29,334 nt of DNA from Candidatus Altiarchaeota archaeon (GTDB taxonomy: Archaea; SpSt-1190). The stretch spans positions 1 to 29,334 of the forward strand of contig JAAOXV010000034.1 in assembly GCA_018220955.1 (NCBI GenBank). Reading direction: 5' to 3'. The position numbers and the translations under genes were made by a program. Below, in pieces: positions 4,784-29,334 of this stretch (positions are counted from its first letter, which is position 1; every line of letters begins with the position of its first letter). Below the pieces are notes generated by a model. The model did not search any database and was not told the origin of the DNA. It saw only the letters and a list, made by a program, of their open reading frames with translations.

Positions 4784-5544
4784 TTCGAAATCCAGCAGCA
4801 ATTGGTTTTTATCCAGCTGAGCAAGCGCAGCTAGAGCTCTTGCTTTCTGAGCTGTTTTTACAAGCCAAGAAGTCAGGACCGTTCATTCACGGAATCTCTC
4901 CGCATGCTGGCCTGATTTATTCTGGTCTTGCGGCAGCCGGACTTTACAAGTCACTCAAAAAAACAGATCGCCTTGTGATATTGGGTACAGACCATCATGG
5001 AATTGGGGATGATATTGTAGTGCATCCTTATTCTGCCTGGAAAACCCCGTTTGGACAAGTTAAGGTAGACACTGAGCTGGCGGCCGAGCTAGATACCCTG
5101 GGTCCGCAGATTTATCCTTGCCCGAGTGAACACTCAATTGAAGTTCAGCTACCTTTTTTGCAGCACATACTTGGTGACTTTAGTTTTCTACCAATCACTG
5201 TACCGTCTGTCCCTTTTCCTCGTCTGCAGGAGCTTGGTGCAAAGCTGGCCGAGCTCGATGTGCCGATTATTGCCAGCTCAGATATGAGTCATTATGTTCC
5301 TGAAGCTCGGGCTGAAAAGCTGGACAAGCTGGCGATTGAACAGATACTAGCTATCCAACCAGAACAGCTGATTGACACTGTGCTTGAGAACAACATCAGT
5401 ATGTGTGGCCTTTTCCCTGTTGCAGCTCTGTTGGCATCTTTACCAAGCTCAACCAGCTCAGAACTTATCGAGTATTATAGCTCAGCCGAGATGACCGGCG
5501 ACAGCTCAAGCGTGGTTGGCTATGCCTCTATTGGATTCAAATAA
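4780..5544 (+). CDS. MEMO1-family protein (AmmeMemoRadiSam system protein B-like, UPF0103)
   Basis: Motifs GFYP, SPHAGLIYSG, ILGTDHHG, EHSIEVQLPFLQ, SSDMSHY and MCG are characteristic of MEMO1. 254 aa. It overlaps the rps2 stop by 4 nt. Confidence 0.75.
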   Translation: MIRNPAAIGFYPAEQAQLELLLSELFLQAKKSGPFIHGISPHAGLIYSGLAAAGLYKSLKKTDRLVILGTDHHGIGDDIVVHPYSAWKTPFGQVKVDTELAAELDTLGPQIYPCPSEHSIEVQLPFLQHILGDFSFLPITVPSVPFPRLQELGAKLAELDVPIIASSDMSHYVPEARAEKLDKLAIEQILAIQPEQLIDTVLENNISMCGLFPVAALLASLPSSTSSELIEYYSSAEMTGDSSSVVGYASIGFK

Positions 5545-5555
5545 TTTTAGTCGAA

Positions 5556-5660
5556 CCCACTGCAGTTGGTAAACCCCGCCCAATTTTTTGTTCAAGGTTT
5601 TCTGCGGAAAAAGAAGGGGCTCCGCCCCTTTCTTCACCCACCGCAGTGGGTAAACCCCGA
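5556..5660. repeat. Composite structured repeat between the MEMO1 gene and tRNA-Arg. Element a (cccacYgcagtKggtaaaccccg) occurs at 5556-5578 and 5637-5659. Element b (ttttttgttcaaggttttctgcggaaaa) occurs at 5584-5612. A GC hairpin (gaaggggc/gcccctttc) is nested inside the ctgcgg...ccgcag inverted repeat.
   Basis: Direct comparison within the window. Element b is duplicated at 6114-6144 and element a partially at 6145-6159. The ctgcgg/ccgcag arms are reverse complements. Confidence 0.6.
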
Positions 5661-5699
5661 ATAAAAAAGGGAAGTCCTAGAAACCGTAGGTTTCTAGTG

Positions 5700-5774
5700 C
5701 GAGCCGAGGGGGATTTGAACCCCCGACCTGCGGGTCCGAAGCCCGCCGCACTATCCAAACTATGCTACCGGCCC
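5700..5774 (-). tRNA. tRNA-Arg (anticodon TCG), 75 nt, no encoded CCA
   Basis: Hand-folded cloverleaf. The acceptor GGGCCGG/UCGGCUC has two G.U pairs (2:71 and 7:66). The D stem is GCAU/GUGC. The anticodon stem GCGGG/CCCGC carries the loop CUUCGGA (UCG). The T arm is GGGGG-UUCAAAU-CCCCC and the discriminator is G. Confidence 0.8.
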
Positions 5775-5855
5775 TCTGGCCTGCACAAGTACCGGCCCTC
5801 TAGCCGACACAGGTACCTGCCTATAATTCAGCACAATAAGCGATTAAAGAAATTG

Positions 5856-6062
5856 CTATTTCTTGAACTGTTTTTTCCAAAACACGGTGTCTGGTAGCAA
5901 GAGTCCGATAAAGCCACCTATCTCTAGCACAACAGCCAGCGCCATTGTGCAGCTGTCACCATATGAGCTAAACCAGAGTCCGAGTCCGTTTGCTATCATG
6001 ATTGCTCCAAACACTCGCGACAAAAAGTCAGCTATCGGTTGTCTCCATTTTAACAGGGCCAC
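5856..6062 (-). CDS. Hypothetical small membrane protein (68 aa, 2 predicted TM helices)
   Basis: The ORF lies between the two tRNA genes and has hydrophobic segments (FGAIMIANGLGLWF, LAVVLEIGGFIGLLL). It has no recognisable family and could be spurious. Confidence 0.2.
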   Translation of the reverse strand: MALLKWRQPIADFLSRVFGAIMIANGLGLWFSSYGDSCTMALAVVLEIGGFIGLLLPDTVFWKKQFKK

Positions 6063-6113
6063 AACAATCAGTGTGCTTCAGCTAAATATGTGTGTCGGGA
6101 GTTTGTCAAAAAC

Positions 6114-6159
6114 AAATTTTTGTTCAAGGTTTTTCTGCGGAAAATCCACCGCAGTGGAC
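6114..6159. repeat. Second copy of the structured repeat: element b (6114-6144) directly joined to a partial element a (tccaccgcagtggac, 6145-6159). It forms a simple ctgcgg-aaaatcca-ccgcag hairpin.
   Basis: Near-identical to 5582-5612 plus 5638-5650, with the internal GC hairpin absent. Confidence 0.6.
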
Positions 6160-6226
6160 AAGAGCTTGCATTATCTTTTAATCAAACACCCCTTCGGAGG
6201 TAAACTTTTGCTTGCGGGGAAAATTT

Positions 6227-6311
6227 TGTCGGGAATGGGATTCGAACCCATGTACTCACTAGAGACAGGATCTTAAGTCCTGCGCGTTTGACCAGTCTCC
6301 GCCACCCCGAC
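6227..6311 (-). tRNA. tRNA-Leu (anticodon TAA), type II with long variable arm, 85 nt, no encoded CCA
   Basis: Acceptor GUCGGGG/UCCCGAC. Anticodon stem CAGGA/UCCUG with loop CUUAAGA (UAA). Variable arm CUC-UAGU-GAG. T arm AUGGG-UUCGAAU-CCCAU. Discriminator A. A TATA-like atatattaaaat lies about 25 nt upstream on the - strand (plus 6327-6340). Confidence 0.8.
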
Positions 6312-12206: not shown

Positions 12207-13444
12207 ACCTTTATGCTTCCTGTCAGATCAAGCATCGCCCTACCAGGATATTCAATCGCCAACTTCTTTACTGGTTTTCTTATGGTGTCTGGCATAGCTG
12301 AATGAATCATTTTTATTAGTTTTGGATTCAGCAACGGCTTGAGTTGACTGGCCTCCATTGACTGAAACAGCTTTTCACTTTTGACTGTTTTGAATTTGCT
12401 GACCCGTCCATCTTGAACAGATGCCTTATACACCTTTTTGAGCTTCTCTTTTTCATACAATGCCATATAAACGCCATCATCCAACAGCCAGACAAACGCC
12501 CGTTCACTGGTCATTTCAAAAATTATTTTTGGCATGGTTTTTATCTTGTATTTTACAGTCGAAATAGTTTCTTTGTCTATCATCGAGCTGATGATTTCTT
12601 TTTTCAAAATCTTGTGATAAAACTCAACTTTCTTTTCTAGCTTTACCACGAGTTCTGCATTTGGCTTCTTTTCTCCATGTTCTGCATCCTTGTGAGCTTT
12701 GATTACTTCTGCACATATTGTCGGTATCTCAGCTGGAATAGCCCCTTCATCAGCAAACCTCTTTAGTATAATCGGTATTTCTGGTGGTGAGGCCGGTTCT
12801 TTTCCGACCGACATAATATACGCGTTACCCATCCAGGTAACTACTCGATACATTCGTTCAACAATCCATTCTAGATATTGCTCTATTTTTTTCATATAAA
12901 CATCCGAACCCTCAACAGCTTTCATCATGGCCTCCTTGGTTGGTCTGACCTCACCAGATTCAAGCAGCCGCTTGAGTGGTTTAATTATGCCTGCATCATA
13001 TATCGGTTTCATATGCCTAAAGAAATTGTAAATAATGGTATCTCCTTCTTTCAAAAAATCCCAGATTTCAGTGAGAGTGTGAACCTGAACTGTTAGCTTT
13101 TTATCTACTTTCTTTGCCATATCATTTAACATAGCGATTATTTTTTCTTTTAGCTCGCCTGGCACATCACGCTGGGTATCATCTATTATGACCAACATAT
13201 CAATATCAGATGTGGGCCGATAATCATCTCTTGCAAGCGAACCAATAACAGCAATCCCCTTTATCATTCCTCCCAGCTTTTGTCTGGCAATGACTGAAAA
13301 TCGCTCAGCGGCCTTTATTTTCATCCTATAAAAGGTCTTCCTTCGTTTTTTTGCCTTAGATACAAATTTAAGCTTCTCTTCGTGGTTTACTCTTGTTTCT
13401 TTGGCTGGTTTAGCTGTTTTTTTTGCCGCCATGCAAAAACCCAT
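12203..13444 (-). CDS. Pol-beta-superfamily nucleotidyltransferase fused to a HEPN-like helical domain, with a basic N-tail and a 170-aa C-terminal extension of unknown function
   Basis: GSLARDDYRPTSDIDMLVIIDD is the GS...DxD motif, followed by a third acidic region (TVQVHTL). The segment ...PLKRLLESGEVRPTKEAMMKAVEGSDVY... is paralogous to the adjacent 275-aa protein. 413 aa. Confidence 0.6.
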   Translation of the reverse strand: MGFCMAAKKTAKPAKETRVNHEEKLKFVSKAKKRRKTFYRMKIKAAERFSVIARQKLGGMIKGIAVIGSLARDDYRPTSDIDMLVIIDDTQRDVPGELKEKIIAMLNDMAKKVDKKLTVQVHTLTEIWDFLKEGDTIIYNFFRHMKPIYDAGIIKPLKRLLESGEVRPTKEAMMKAVEGSDVYMKKIEQYLEWIVERMYRVVTWMGNAYIMSVGKEPASPPEIPIILKRFADEGAIPAEIPTICAEVIKAHKDAEHGEKKPNAELVVKLEKKVEFYHKILKKEIISSMIDKETISTVKYKIKTMPKIIFEMTSERAFVWLLDDGVYMALYEKEKLKKVYKASVQDGRVSKFKTVKSEKLFQSMEASQLKPLLNPKLIKMIHSAMPDTIRKPVKKLAIEYPGRAMLDLTGSIKV

Positions 13445-23485: not shown

Positions 23486-23742
23486 TATATCGCCTCCTCA
23501 ATTTTTTGCAAGGATTCATAGATTCTCAGTTGTGAATTGATTCTTGCCTTTAGCTGACTCGATTTGTCGGCTTTTATAATTATCCTTAGCTTGTTATCTG
23601 ACCAGCTAATGTTTTCTGATGCCAATGCAAGAAAAACATTTTCTGAGCTTGGAAGGACCAGCTCGGCACTTAACGCGCCTTGACTGTCTTTATTGCTGCT
23701 GGTCTTGTTTTTACCAGAATCTTGTAGCCGCAAAACGGACAC
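23485..23742 (-). CDS. pcc1: KEOPS complex subunit Pcc1-like
   Basis: The C-terminal NKLRIIIKADKSSQLKARINSQLRIYESLQKI matches Pcc1 (..L.I.IEAEDL.ALRA.INS.LRWI..). It lies in the conserved position between rpoP and pfdB. The N-terminal 24 codons overlap rpoP in another frame, so the start is uncertain. Confidence 0.5.
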   Translation of the reverse strand: MSVLRLQDSGKNKTSSNKDSQGALSAELVLPSSENVFLALASENISWSDNKLRIIIKADKSSQLKARINSQLRIYESLQKIEEAI

Positions 23743-23810
23743 CTCACTCTATCATAACTGATATTGATACCTACCATCTTTCCGCATCTTATACATCTAT
23801 AGTTACCCAT
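23670..23810 (-). CDS. rpoP: DNA-directed RNA polymerase subunit P (Rpo12 / RPC10)
   Basis: Hand-translated 46 aa: MGNYRCIRCGKMVGINISYDRVRCPFCGYKILVKTRPAAIKTVKAR. It has the two CxxC pairs and the CGYRIL.K.R signature. Its ATG overlaps the rpl37ae stop (TAATG). Confidence 0.75.
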   Translation of the reverse strand: MGNYRCIRCGKMVGINISYDRVRCPFCGYKILVKTRPAAIKTVKAR

Positions 23811-24025
23811 TATACCACCCTGAATGCGCCAGAAGCGAACTTATATCCGCATTTCCGACATTGCCAAATCCCGACTGCCACTCGCTTGACTGCTTCAGCG
23901 CCGCAGCTTGGACACTTGTAGCTGGCCCGTTGTACTCGTTCAATCTCATCAATTTTCTTTTTCGCTCTAGCTCCATATCTAGGTCCAAACCTTTTTGATG
24001 GACGAGCTCGCTTTACTTTTGCCAT
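23810..24025 (-). CDS. rpl37ae: 50S ribosomal protein L37ae (eL43)
   Basis: MAKVKRARPSKRFGPRYGA...YKCPSCGA...WQCRKCGYKFAGGA is the classical L37ae with a C4 zinc ribbon. 71 aa. Confidence 0.9.
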   Translation of the reverse strand: MAKVKRARPSKRFGPRYGARAKKKIDEIERVQRASYKCPSCGAEAVKRVAVGIWQCRKCGYKFASGAFRVV

Positions 24026-24217
24026 TTAATCACCGAATATTACTGCAATCGCCGCCAGACCAGCCACTGCTAACACTGCCAGTAGCATTGGCGGCAGGTT
24101 CAATAGAGAATTGAAGTATTTTAAAAGTTCCCCTATGTACCAGAGCCAAGCTATTCCAGCTAAGAGACCAATCGCCATTAGCCAGCTTAGTGCGCTTTTT
24201 AGCCTGGACCAGTTCAT
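24026..24217 (-). CDS. Hypothetical small membrane protein (63 aa, 2 TM helices)
   Basis: Hydrophobic ORF immediately upstream of rpl37ae and abutting it. The alternative-frame ORF 24030-24221 looks less protein-like. Confidence 0.3.
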   Translation of the reverse strand: MNWSRLKSALSWLMAIGLLAGIAWLWYIGELLKYFNSLLNLPPMLLAVLAVAGLAAIAVIFGD

Positions 24218-24354
24218 ACAAGCCGGTTTTTCAAGGCATTATAACCTTAACCATACATTTTTTAACTACAAGAGCTCTTTACATTCAGGAGGATGACACC
24301 CATGGTATCTGAACCTCATTTGTGAGGGATTGTGATGATGCCGTCCCAGTCTGA

Positions 24355-29311: not shown

Positions 29312-29334
29312 TCCACCGAGACAGGTCCCGGAGG

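Follow-up and report, generated by a model that had tools for sequence, protein, structure and literature searches.

Modular palindromic repeats in the 3' flanks of two tRNA genes of a Candidatus Altiarchaeota archaeon

In archaea, oligo-T is an established signal of transcription termination, for which a hairpin is not required, and fragments of tRNA genes and attachment (att) repeats derived from archaeal integrative elements are said to have been described by Williams in 2002 and by Reiter in 1989. The closest described palindromic repeats are the bacterial repetitive extragenic palindromic (REP) sequences and bacterial interspersed mosaic elements (BIMEs), and REP-like palindromes have been predicted in archaea too (PMC12306157). 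In Thermococcales, tRNA fragments are documented as integration footprints (PMC9897764), as are tRNA genes at the borders of integrase-linked inversions (PMC5495485). Here we describe a family of short repeats next to the tRNA-Arg and tRNA-Leu genes in a 29,334-bp contig of a metagenome-assembled genome (MAG) labelled Candidatus Altiarchaeota archaeon (NCBI); the whole contig is referred to below as the window. Such repeats are already a known kind of thing, and what is notable is the conservation, above the neutral rate, of modules that swap between two tRNA trailers. With somewhat less than even confidence, we favour the reading that these are lineage-specific modular palindromic spacer repeats with REP/BIME-like behaviour, which duplicate or recombine among tRNA 3' flanks and for which transcription stops of the hairpin plus oligo-T type are a plausible side function.

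A first-pass annotation, made from the sequence of the window, had seen part of a larger family that consists of element a, element b, a palindrome, a GC-rich hairpin and a module designated X. All repeat copies are extragenic and lie in the spacer between the MEMO1 and tRNA-Arg genes, which holds copy 1, and in the spacer between tRNA-Leu and a small open reading frame (ORF), which holds copy 2. The components are as follows, with the strand given where one was assigned and z denoting folding energy relative to shuffled sequences:

5556-5578: a1, degenerate palindrome CCCACTGCAGTTGG followed by TAAACCCCG; 22/24 identical to a2
5582-5611: b1, AATTTTTTGTTCAAGGTTTTCTGCGGAAAA, made up of T6 (5584-5589), GTTCAAGG, T4, CTGCGG (5602-5607) and A4
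5613-5635: GC hairpin, GAAGGGGC-TCC-GCCCCTTTC, within the loop of copy 1
5636-5659: a2, palindrome ACCCACCGCAGTGGG followed by TAAACCCCG; its CCGCAG (5641-5646) pairs with the CTGCGG of b1
5663-5668, − strand: T6 on the tRNA-sense strand, 31 nt past tRNA-Arg; likely tRNA-Arg terminator
5677-5697, − strand: 9-bp perfect hairpin CTAGAAACC-TAC-GGTTTCTAG, directly after tRNA-Arg (z = -3.3)
6092-6100, − strand: TCCCGACAC, which matches the 3' end of tRNA-Leu and lies on the far side of the copy-2 block; weak, at 8-9 nt only
6115-6144: b2, AATTTTTGTTCAAGGTTTTTCTGCGGAAAA, made up of T5, GTTCAAGG, T5, CTGCGG (6135-6140) and A4
6145-6161: palindrome of subtype I, TCCACCGCAGTGGACAA; its CCGCAG (6149-6154) pairs with the CTGCGG of b2
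6184-6222, − strand: module X, AAACACCCCTTCGGAGGTAAACTTTTGCTTGCGGGGAAA when read on the + strand, 4 nt downstream of the tRNA-Leu 3' end

At the places given by the first-pass annotation, a and b recur with few or no differences, and no match is expected by shuffling (for a, 2 matches found versus 0.00 expected in 100 shuffles; for b, the expectation is likewise 0); repeat finding recovers both families. The sole difference between b1 and b2 is in the T runs, 6+4 versus 5+5 (blastn 27/28, E = 1e-5), and the 12-nt core of the palindrome, CCACCGCAGTGG, occurs for a third time at 6146-6157. The ctgcgg/ccgcag inverted repeat that had been reported in each copy is borne out by the complementarity of 5602-5607 with 5641-5646 and of 6135-6140 with 6149-6154. 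The same is true of the nested GC-rich hairpin, which occupies the loop of copy 1 (5613-5635), whereas copy 2 lacks this insert and has the loop AAAATCCA. The distance of 12 nt between the MEMO1 stop and copy 1 is correct for the start of a1 and not for the T6 of b, which lies 40 nt past the stop. On the + strand, the basic unit reads TTTT-CTGCGG-AAAA, a short loop and CCACCGCAGTGG, and its neighbours, namely TTTTTGTTCAAGG (in b), the X hairpin, TAAACCCCG and the GC hairpin, are interchangeable. Module X, just outside the span covered earlier, is counted in this family on account of the homology between its TTTTGCYTGCGGGGAAA half and the half of b that reads TTTT-CTGCGG-AAAA; on the − strand, X forms the hairpin ACCYCC-GAA-GGGGT followed by TTT, which was flagged as a hairpin plus T site. 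The palindrome is present in three copies within one 600-nt region and absent from the other 14 spacers of the window, and no further copies of a or b were detected in the other 28 kb by pattern search with 3 mismatches, blastn-short or a covariance model of the unit.

Close relatives were sought with the MEMO1, 68-aa ORF and CorA proteins in a public protein collection, and a single one was found, the ENA contig L007 (89% amino acid identity for MEMO1 and 88% for the small ORF). The gene order of L007 equals that of the window, tRNA-Arg and tRNA-Leu are 100% identical, and the coding DNA is 82% identical, with the differences mainly at third codon positions; the tRNA flanks are unalignable save for discrete modules. 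Element b is missing from L007, and the palindrome is found there in two copies at non-orthologous places, TCCACCGCAGTGGACAA at L007 1166-1182, adjoining MEMO1 (17/17 identical to window 6145-6161), and ACCCACCGCAGTGGG at L007 1274-1288, 11 nt past tRNA-Arg (15/15 identical to a2). Module X, which is located behind tRNA-Leu in the window (6184-6222), is located behind tRNA-Arg in L007 (1236-1274; 37/39 identical, E = 3e-12), and its single stem difference (C to T) retains a G-U pair on the − (tRNA-sense) strand only. The unit TTTT..CTGCGG..AAA..CCACCGCAGTGG is thereby represented by three copies over the two genomes, i.e. window copy 1, window copy 2 and the L007 X-palindrome junction, with a fourth, half unit lacking the palindrome in the X of the window. 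All five palindrome copies (three in the window, two in L007) are in the tRNA orientation.

The turnover of the modules is discrete. The a2 of the window equals L007 CGGGGTTTA with an 18-nt palindrome insertion; TAAACCCCG is present in L007 without the palindrome, and the GC-hairpin part GCCCCTTTC is found there as well. The sole orthologous spacer segment is the T6/T7 tract after tRNA-Arg (T7 in L007), followed by CGGGGTTTA. The place of the window 9-bp hairpin (5677-5697) is taken in L007 by the palindrome and module X, which lie in its Arg trailer, and only the Leu trailer of the window contains X (38 nt in the alignment) and a palindrome-b block (70 nt, including b2, lacking in L007), as two discrete indels. 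Between the window and L007, MEMO1 and the small ORF agree at 63% of third codon positions, and under this rate, the module matches have probabilities of P = 5e-6 (37/39), P = 4e-4 (17/17) and P = 1e-3 (15/15). Therefore, the modules are islands of near-identity in otherwise unalignable spacers. Such near-identity would fit recently copied or mobile DNA, gene conversion or a sequence-specific function, and passively decaying scars would not be expected to produce it.

A further relative at 66% (L008) stops 26 nt past tRNA-Arg, and its tRNA-Arg after MEMO1 is reversed in orientation compared to that of the window. The 33-nt spacer at L008 1298-1330 contains CAAGGTTTT...AAAAA, which resembles the core of element b (window 5590-5612) through a 9-nt exact match (~2% chance by hand estimate).

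We infer that these modules, which fill the 3' flanks of two co-oriented tRNA genes, would owe their spread to local duplication, to template switching or to ectopic recombination among the tRNA trailers, with the possible assistance of a recombinase acting at tRNA genes. Their sole likely effect in the cell would be to supply hairpin plus oligo-T transcription stops, by which the tRNAs, themselves highly transcribed, would be kept apart from the exosome/MEMO1 operon that converges on them and from the small ORF downstream. Among the earlier suggestions, a miniature element of mobile or recombinational type, associated with tRNA loci, fits best, given that nearly identical modules were gained, lost and moved between the Arg and Leu trailers of the two genomes; the terminal inverted repeats and target-site duplications of such an element were not found. 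Several observations count against the modular-repeat reading. The five known palindrome copies are all in one 700-nt tRNA cluster of two genomes; the units carry no target-site duplication or terminal inverted repeats; and the palindrome, at 12-16 nt, is shorter than typical REPs. The window encodes no transposase, REP-associated tyrosine transposase (RAYT) or integrase. A termination role is not required, as L007 has neither b nor a run of five or more T after MEMO1, and the above-neutral conservation could equally mean a sequence-specific function. Membership in the REP, MITE (miniature transposable element with inverted repeats) or att-scar families cannot be claimed. As to MITEs, the unit ends CCACTGCGGTGG... 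and ...GAACAAAAATT are not inverted repeats, and there is no duplication at the indel junctions relative to L007. A CRISPR array was likewise rejected, element a being present only twice with 81-nt spacing and Tandem Repeats Finder (TRF) finding no array.

Upstream of the repeats, the + strand segment 595-5544 encodes the proteasome alpha subunit, SBDS, Rrp4, Rrp41, Rrp42, ribosomal protein S2 and MEMO1, a MEMO1-family protein (AmmeMemoRadiSam system protein B; stop codon at 5542-5544). On the − strand, MEMO1 is followed by tRNA-Arg(TCG), the 68-aa membrane ORF, tRNA-Leu(TAA), two Ras-like GTPase genes and TFB, of which the first three are located as follows:

5699-5774, − strand: tRNA-Arg(TCG), context; 100% identical in L007
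5856-6062, − strand: 68-aa membrane ORF, between tRNA-Arg and tRNA-Leu
6227-6311, − strand: tRNA-Leu(TAA), context; 100% identical in L007

The 68-aa ORF (5856-6062, −) has two predicted helices of the membrane type, no Pfam match and a single homolog among 5.8 billion proteins (L007, 88%); its changes relative to L007 mostly fall on third codon positions (26 of 36), which marks it as a genuine gene, though an orphan. The acceptor stem of tRNA-Arg contains two G-U pairs (G2-U71 and G7-U66), the former replaced by G2-C71 in L008, and CCA is encoded by neither tRNA-Arg nor tRNA-Leu. The GC content of the spacers holding copy 1 and copy 2 is 0.48 and 0.40, respectively, versus 0.27-0.39 in the other 14 spacers of at least 25 nt in the contig, with one exception at 0.44 (23486-24354); this seeming 869-nt gene-free gap contains small genes, L37ae-like and Rpo12-like as judged from translations inspected by eye. 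Elsewhere in the contig, the spacers of at least two convergent gene pairs measure 0-8 nt and contain no such cassette; thus, the tRNA-flank DNA is extra.

The MEMO1/tRNA-Arg spacer folds far better than shuffles (z = -5.25 on the − strand and z = -4.49 on the + strand), the behaviour to be expected of palindromic DNA, with the two quasi-palindromes pairing together and enclosing the remainder. The corresponding L007 spacer folds likewise, but more weakly (z = -2.3 and -2.2), whereas the tRNA-Leu trailer is unexceptional (z = -0.02 and -1.8) and module X alone folds no better than shuffles. The dyad core of the palindrome spans 12-16 nt, and the composite unit of ~35-60 nt folds at z of about -2 to -3.3. 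Copy 1 is more stable on the − strand, with an outer stem CGGGGUUU/AAACCUUG that includes G-U pairs, whereas for copy 2 and the L007 unit, it is the + strand that folds more stably, with U-G pairs; in the two genomes compared, the stems are invariant, i.e. there is no covariation. In Rfam 15 (including C/D and H/ACA small RNAs), only three tRNAs in the window reach the gathering threshold, and at E<=10, nothing credible covers the repeats in either the window or L007. Near-matches to C/D-box and H/ACA small RNAs were noted by inspection and rejected, given that they are not conserved between the window and L007, and a tRNA-like fold of the trailers was rejected as well, RF00005 matching only the true tRNAs. 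In the folding and covariation analysis proposed by the first-pass annotation, the MEMO1/tRNA-Arg spacer thus folds beyond shuffles on both strands, with no covariation and with inconsistent strands among the copies. Palindromy at the DNA level, rather than a selected RNA fold, is favoured by the inconsistent strand preference, by stems that do not vary and by the lack of any Rfam match at E<=10.

Tracts of at least five T occur on both strands of these spacers. On the + strand, T6 (5584-5589) follows the MEMO1 stop at 40 nt. On the − strand, T6 (5663-5668) follows tRNA-Arg at 31 nt and is conserved as T7 in L007; T5 (5608-5612) directly follows the GC hairpin and was flagged as terminator-like; and T5 (6108-6112) precedes the promoter of the small ORF. 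These are runs of five or more T on the sense strand shortly after gene ends. The GC hairpin read on the − strand is followed by TTCTTTTT, with a terminator-like site at 5630-5614. Because such tracts are present on both strands and oligo-T is the archaeal signal, it is plausible that copy 1 stops transcription in both directions, with b1 as a candidate + strand stop for the MEMO1 operon. The earlier proposal of an exosome/MEMO1 operon terminator is accordingly plausible for copy 1, but b is dispensable, because L007 lacks both b and a T5+ run after MEMO1.

Traces of recombination are present around the tRNA genes. One is a tandem repeat at window 5766-5821, of 2.3 copies with 84% matches, whose 24-nt unit combines the tRNA-Arg leader with the initial 9 nt of the gene; its first unit overlaps the tRNA-Arg 5' end, and the rest lie upstream. 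L007 lacks these additional 44 nt, and the repeat shows local duplication activity. Twelve nt spanning the tRNA-Arg 5' end are repeated in the window. Where the copy-2 block ends distally, positions 6092-6100 repeat TCCCGACA(C), the 3' end of tRNA-Leu; the match covers 8 nt in the window and 9 once the L007 flank is counted. The L007 segment palindrome-TTTC-CCCGCAGG aligns to the tRNA-Arg anticodon arm at 19 of 21 positions with one 3-nt gap (p ~0.004; ~0.04 when corrected for nine comparisons), so that descent of the palindrome from this arm is a lead, not proof. In four distant relatives (L010, L013, L016 and L017), MEMO1 is followed by a VTT-domain gene, Band_7 and GatE, whereas in the window, the VTT-Band_7-GatE block is found inverted at 20-28 kb, i.e. 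the segment ~5545-28300 (~22.7 kb) is inverted relative to those relatives. Because the MEMO1/tRNA-Arg spacer is one end of the inverted segment, copy 1 sits on the inversion junction; the link between repeats and inversion is circumstantial.

Distant relatives L010, L012 and L017, which are Altiarchaeota-like contigs, contain clear partial duplicates of tRNA 3' ends (17-28 nt) that bound hairpin-rich inserts of 65-130 nt, a size well below that of known integrated elements. These are a 17-nt repeat 65 nt past tRNA-Leu (L010 2099-2197), two decayed T-arm plus acceptor copies of 23-28 nt at ~100 and 230 nt past tRNA-Leu (L012 6170-6433), and a 22-nt copy of the tRNA-Gly 3' end 84 nt away (L017 12952-13080). 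L017 also has a 51-nt repeat of its own (12972-13022 and 13299-13349, 86% identical), composed of a GAGCTTTACGAAGCTC hairpin, CCACGGTGG and a hairpin with a copy-variable stem; located beside the tRNA-Gly fragment and directly after tRNA-Val, it shows that another lineage has tRNA-flank repeats of this kind too. No motif common to the tRNA-flank inserts across lineages was detected beyond weak 6-mer enrichment.

The searches of other collections yielded no copies. Element b had six matches among 185,579 representative genomes, all bacterial and attributable to chance, and the b-a unit had 0 in JGI metagenomes. The 42-nt tRNA-Arg anchor also had 0 matches in JGI metagenomes; the lineage is therefore absent from them, which makes the repeat negative there weak. 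Element b, X, the 17-nt palindrome, a, the palindrome-TTT-CCGCAG unit and the X half each gave 0 or one chance match in IMG/VR, the single match falling inside a coding ORF of a viral contig with 60% GC. Blastn against phage and plasmid collections returned nothing meaningful, and the covariance model of the unit, run over 148 kb of fetched loci, recovered the three training copies only, along with weak matches in coding regions. These negatives say little about the copy number in the source genome.

How do the other explanations fare? Site-specific integration and excision at tRNA genes could have left scars, with the modules as remnants of small elements or decayed copies of att sites and tRNA fragments, and we regard this as unlikely. 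The bounded hairpin-rich inserts of L010, L012 and L017, the recurrence of TCCCGACA(C) at the end of the copy-2 block, the 12-nt repeat of the tRNA-Arg 5' end, the likeness of L007 palindrome-linker-CCCGCAGG to the anticodon arm (p ~0.004 before correction), the location of the MEMO1/tRNA-Arg spacer at the inversion junction relative to L010, L013, L016 and L017, and the Thermococcales precedents for tRNA-fragment footprints (PMC9897764) and tRNA-bordered inversions (PMC5495485) are all consistent with such scars. However, the direct repeats in the window measure 8-9 nt next to tRNA-Leu and, around the 5' end of tRNA-Arg, 12 nt, compared to ~15-50 nt for an att scar by the criterion applied and ~17-50 nt for known att sites; no integrase or cargo gene is present in the window, and there is no relevant match in the IMG/VR, phage or plasmid collections. 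Moreover, neutral scars are expected to be ~63% identical, whereas X and the palindromes are 95-100% identical, and X and the palindrome block are two separate indels rather than one bounded insert. The same near-identity would be explained, across genomes ~37% diverged at synonymous sites, by an active mobile or homogenised system specific to Altiarchaeota tRNA trailers, in which mini-palindromes (derived, possibly, from the anticodon arm of tRNA-Arg) hop or are copied, along with X, from one trailer to another, are co-transcribed, and are recognised by a dedicated recombinase or a tRNA-processing or termination factor; we consider this quite unlikely. A similarly low probability attaches to a dedicated, selected terminator or insulator cassette that handles the convergent MEMO1 operon and tRNA-Arg as well as tRNA-Leu read-through, its repetition reflecting reuse of a working design. 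The T tracts are at the places expected of such a cassette (on + after MEMO1, on − after tRNA-Arg and before the small-ORF promoter), and two hairpins are followed by T on the tRNA-sense strand, the GC hairpin by TTCTTTTT and the X hairpin by TTT. Yet at least two other convergent pairs do without it, L007 has neither b nor a + strand T5+ tract after MEMO1, only 2 of 5 palindrome copies have a U tract after them on the tRNA-sense strand, copy 2 has nothing to terminate on the + strand, and the hairpins go unexplained, archaeal oligo-T being sufficient.

A small RNA or cis-acting RNA in the − strand tRNA trailers, co-transcribed with the tRNA and released by RNase Z, with X and the palindrome as its conserved parts, strikes us as very unlikely. 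In both genomes, X and the palindrome do lie between a tRNA 3' end and the first oligo-T (window tRNA-Leu, L007 tRNA-Arg), X is 37/39 identical despite 18% coding divergence, its stem change keeps the G-U pair on the − strand only, and the palindromes are all in the tRNA orientation. Against this stand the lack of an Rfam match and of a C/D or H/ACA pattern by inspection, the folding of X and the Leu trailer no better than shuffles (z = 0.4, -0.2 and -0.02), the location of a and b mostly beyond the tRNA-Arg terminator, the lack of b in L007 and the disagreement of the copies in strand preference. The broader suggestion of a small structured RNA made by the first-pass annotation is disfavoured on the same grounds (no Rfam match at E<=10, no b in L007, opposite strand preference, no covariation), and also because most of copy 1 lies beyond the conserved T6/T7 that is expected to end the tRNA-Arg transcript. 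Still less probable is a binding site for a dimeric DNA-binding protein, either a regulator or a recombinase, on the dyad (G)TCCAC-CGCA-GTGGA(C). This dyad is perfect, with arms of 5-7 bp, is exact in five copies over two genomes and has an asymmetric centre in the same polarity in all copies, but its positions relative to promoters and genes are not conserved between the two genomes, the 4-bp centre is too short for a classical tyrosine-recombinase core, and no candidate protein is encoded nearby in the window.

If the modular-repeat reading is true, this locus provides an example, in a poorly sampled archaeal phylum, the Altiarchaeota, of REP-like modular palindromes that turn over fast in tRNA flanks, and for annotation, it implies that the repeats are not small RNA genes. 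Genome rearrangement may have hot spots in tRNA flanks, given the position of copy 1 on an inversion junction. Something more specific, such as a mobilisation or recognition system targeting trailers, could be suggested only by the near-identical X and palindromes, which change places between the trailers of tRNA-Arg and tRNA-Leu. In MAG assembly, contigs may break at such repeats. This contig stops 23 nt past tRNA-Gly(GCC) (29312-29334), and the trailer of that tRNA opens with TCCACCG, resembling the palindrome TCCACCGCAGTGG; therefore, a tRNA flank rich in repeats may be where the assembly broke.

Compared to the integrase-linked inversions of Thermococcales (PMC5495485), the copy-1 spacer is similarly placed at the junction of a ~22.7-kb inversion, and tRNA-Arg of L008 is reversed, but no pTN3-like integrase or paralogous recombination partner was identified here. 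With the tRNA fragments and att repeats of archaea (PMC9897764), the modules share their position at tRNA gene ends, the short duplicates of tRNA termini and the rebuilding of flanks between relatives. The known cases, however, bound islands of 9-23 kb with ~44-bp repeats and an integrase, whereas the inserts here consist of 40-130 nt of hairpins with no integrase, and for a, b, X and the palindrome, a tRNA origin is not clear and conservation exceeds the neutral rate. Like archaeal oligo-T terminators, the locus has T5-T6 on the sense strand shortly after MEMO1 and tRNA-Arg and, further off, after tRNA-Leu; the repeated part, in contrast, is mostly hairpins and their flanks, unneeded for archaeal termination, and on the + strand, the hairpin comes after its T tract instead of before it. 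The bacterial REPs and BIMEs differ in core length (~20-40 nt versus 12-16 nt here) and in orientation, which alternates in BIMEs and is uniform here, and the window encodes no RAYT/IS200-IS605 transposase. REP genomes have tens to hundreds of dispersed copies each; five copies are known here, all in one tRNA cluster of two genomes, and three of them are in the 29-kb contig. In common with REPs and BIMEs, the repeats described here are extragenic, at gene 3' ends and between convergent genes; they consist of short imperfect palindromes in modular mosaics, with a species-specific sequence and a presence that varies between close relatives; they could form RNA 3' hairpins or terminators; and their modules retain their sequence wherever they are present.

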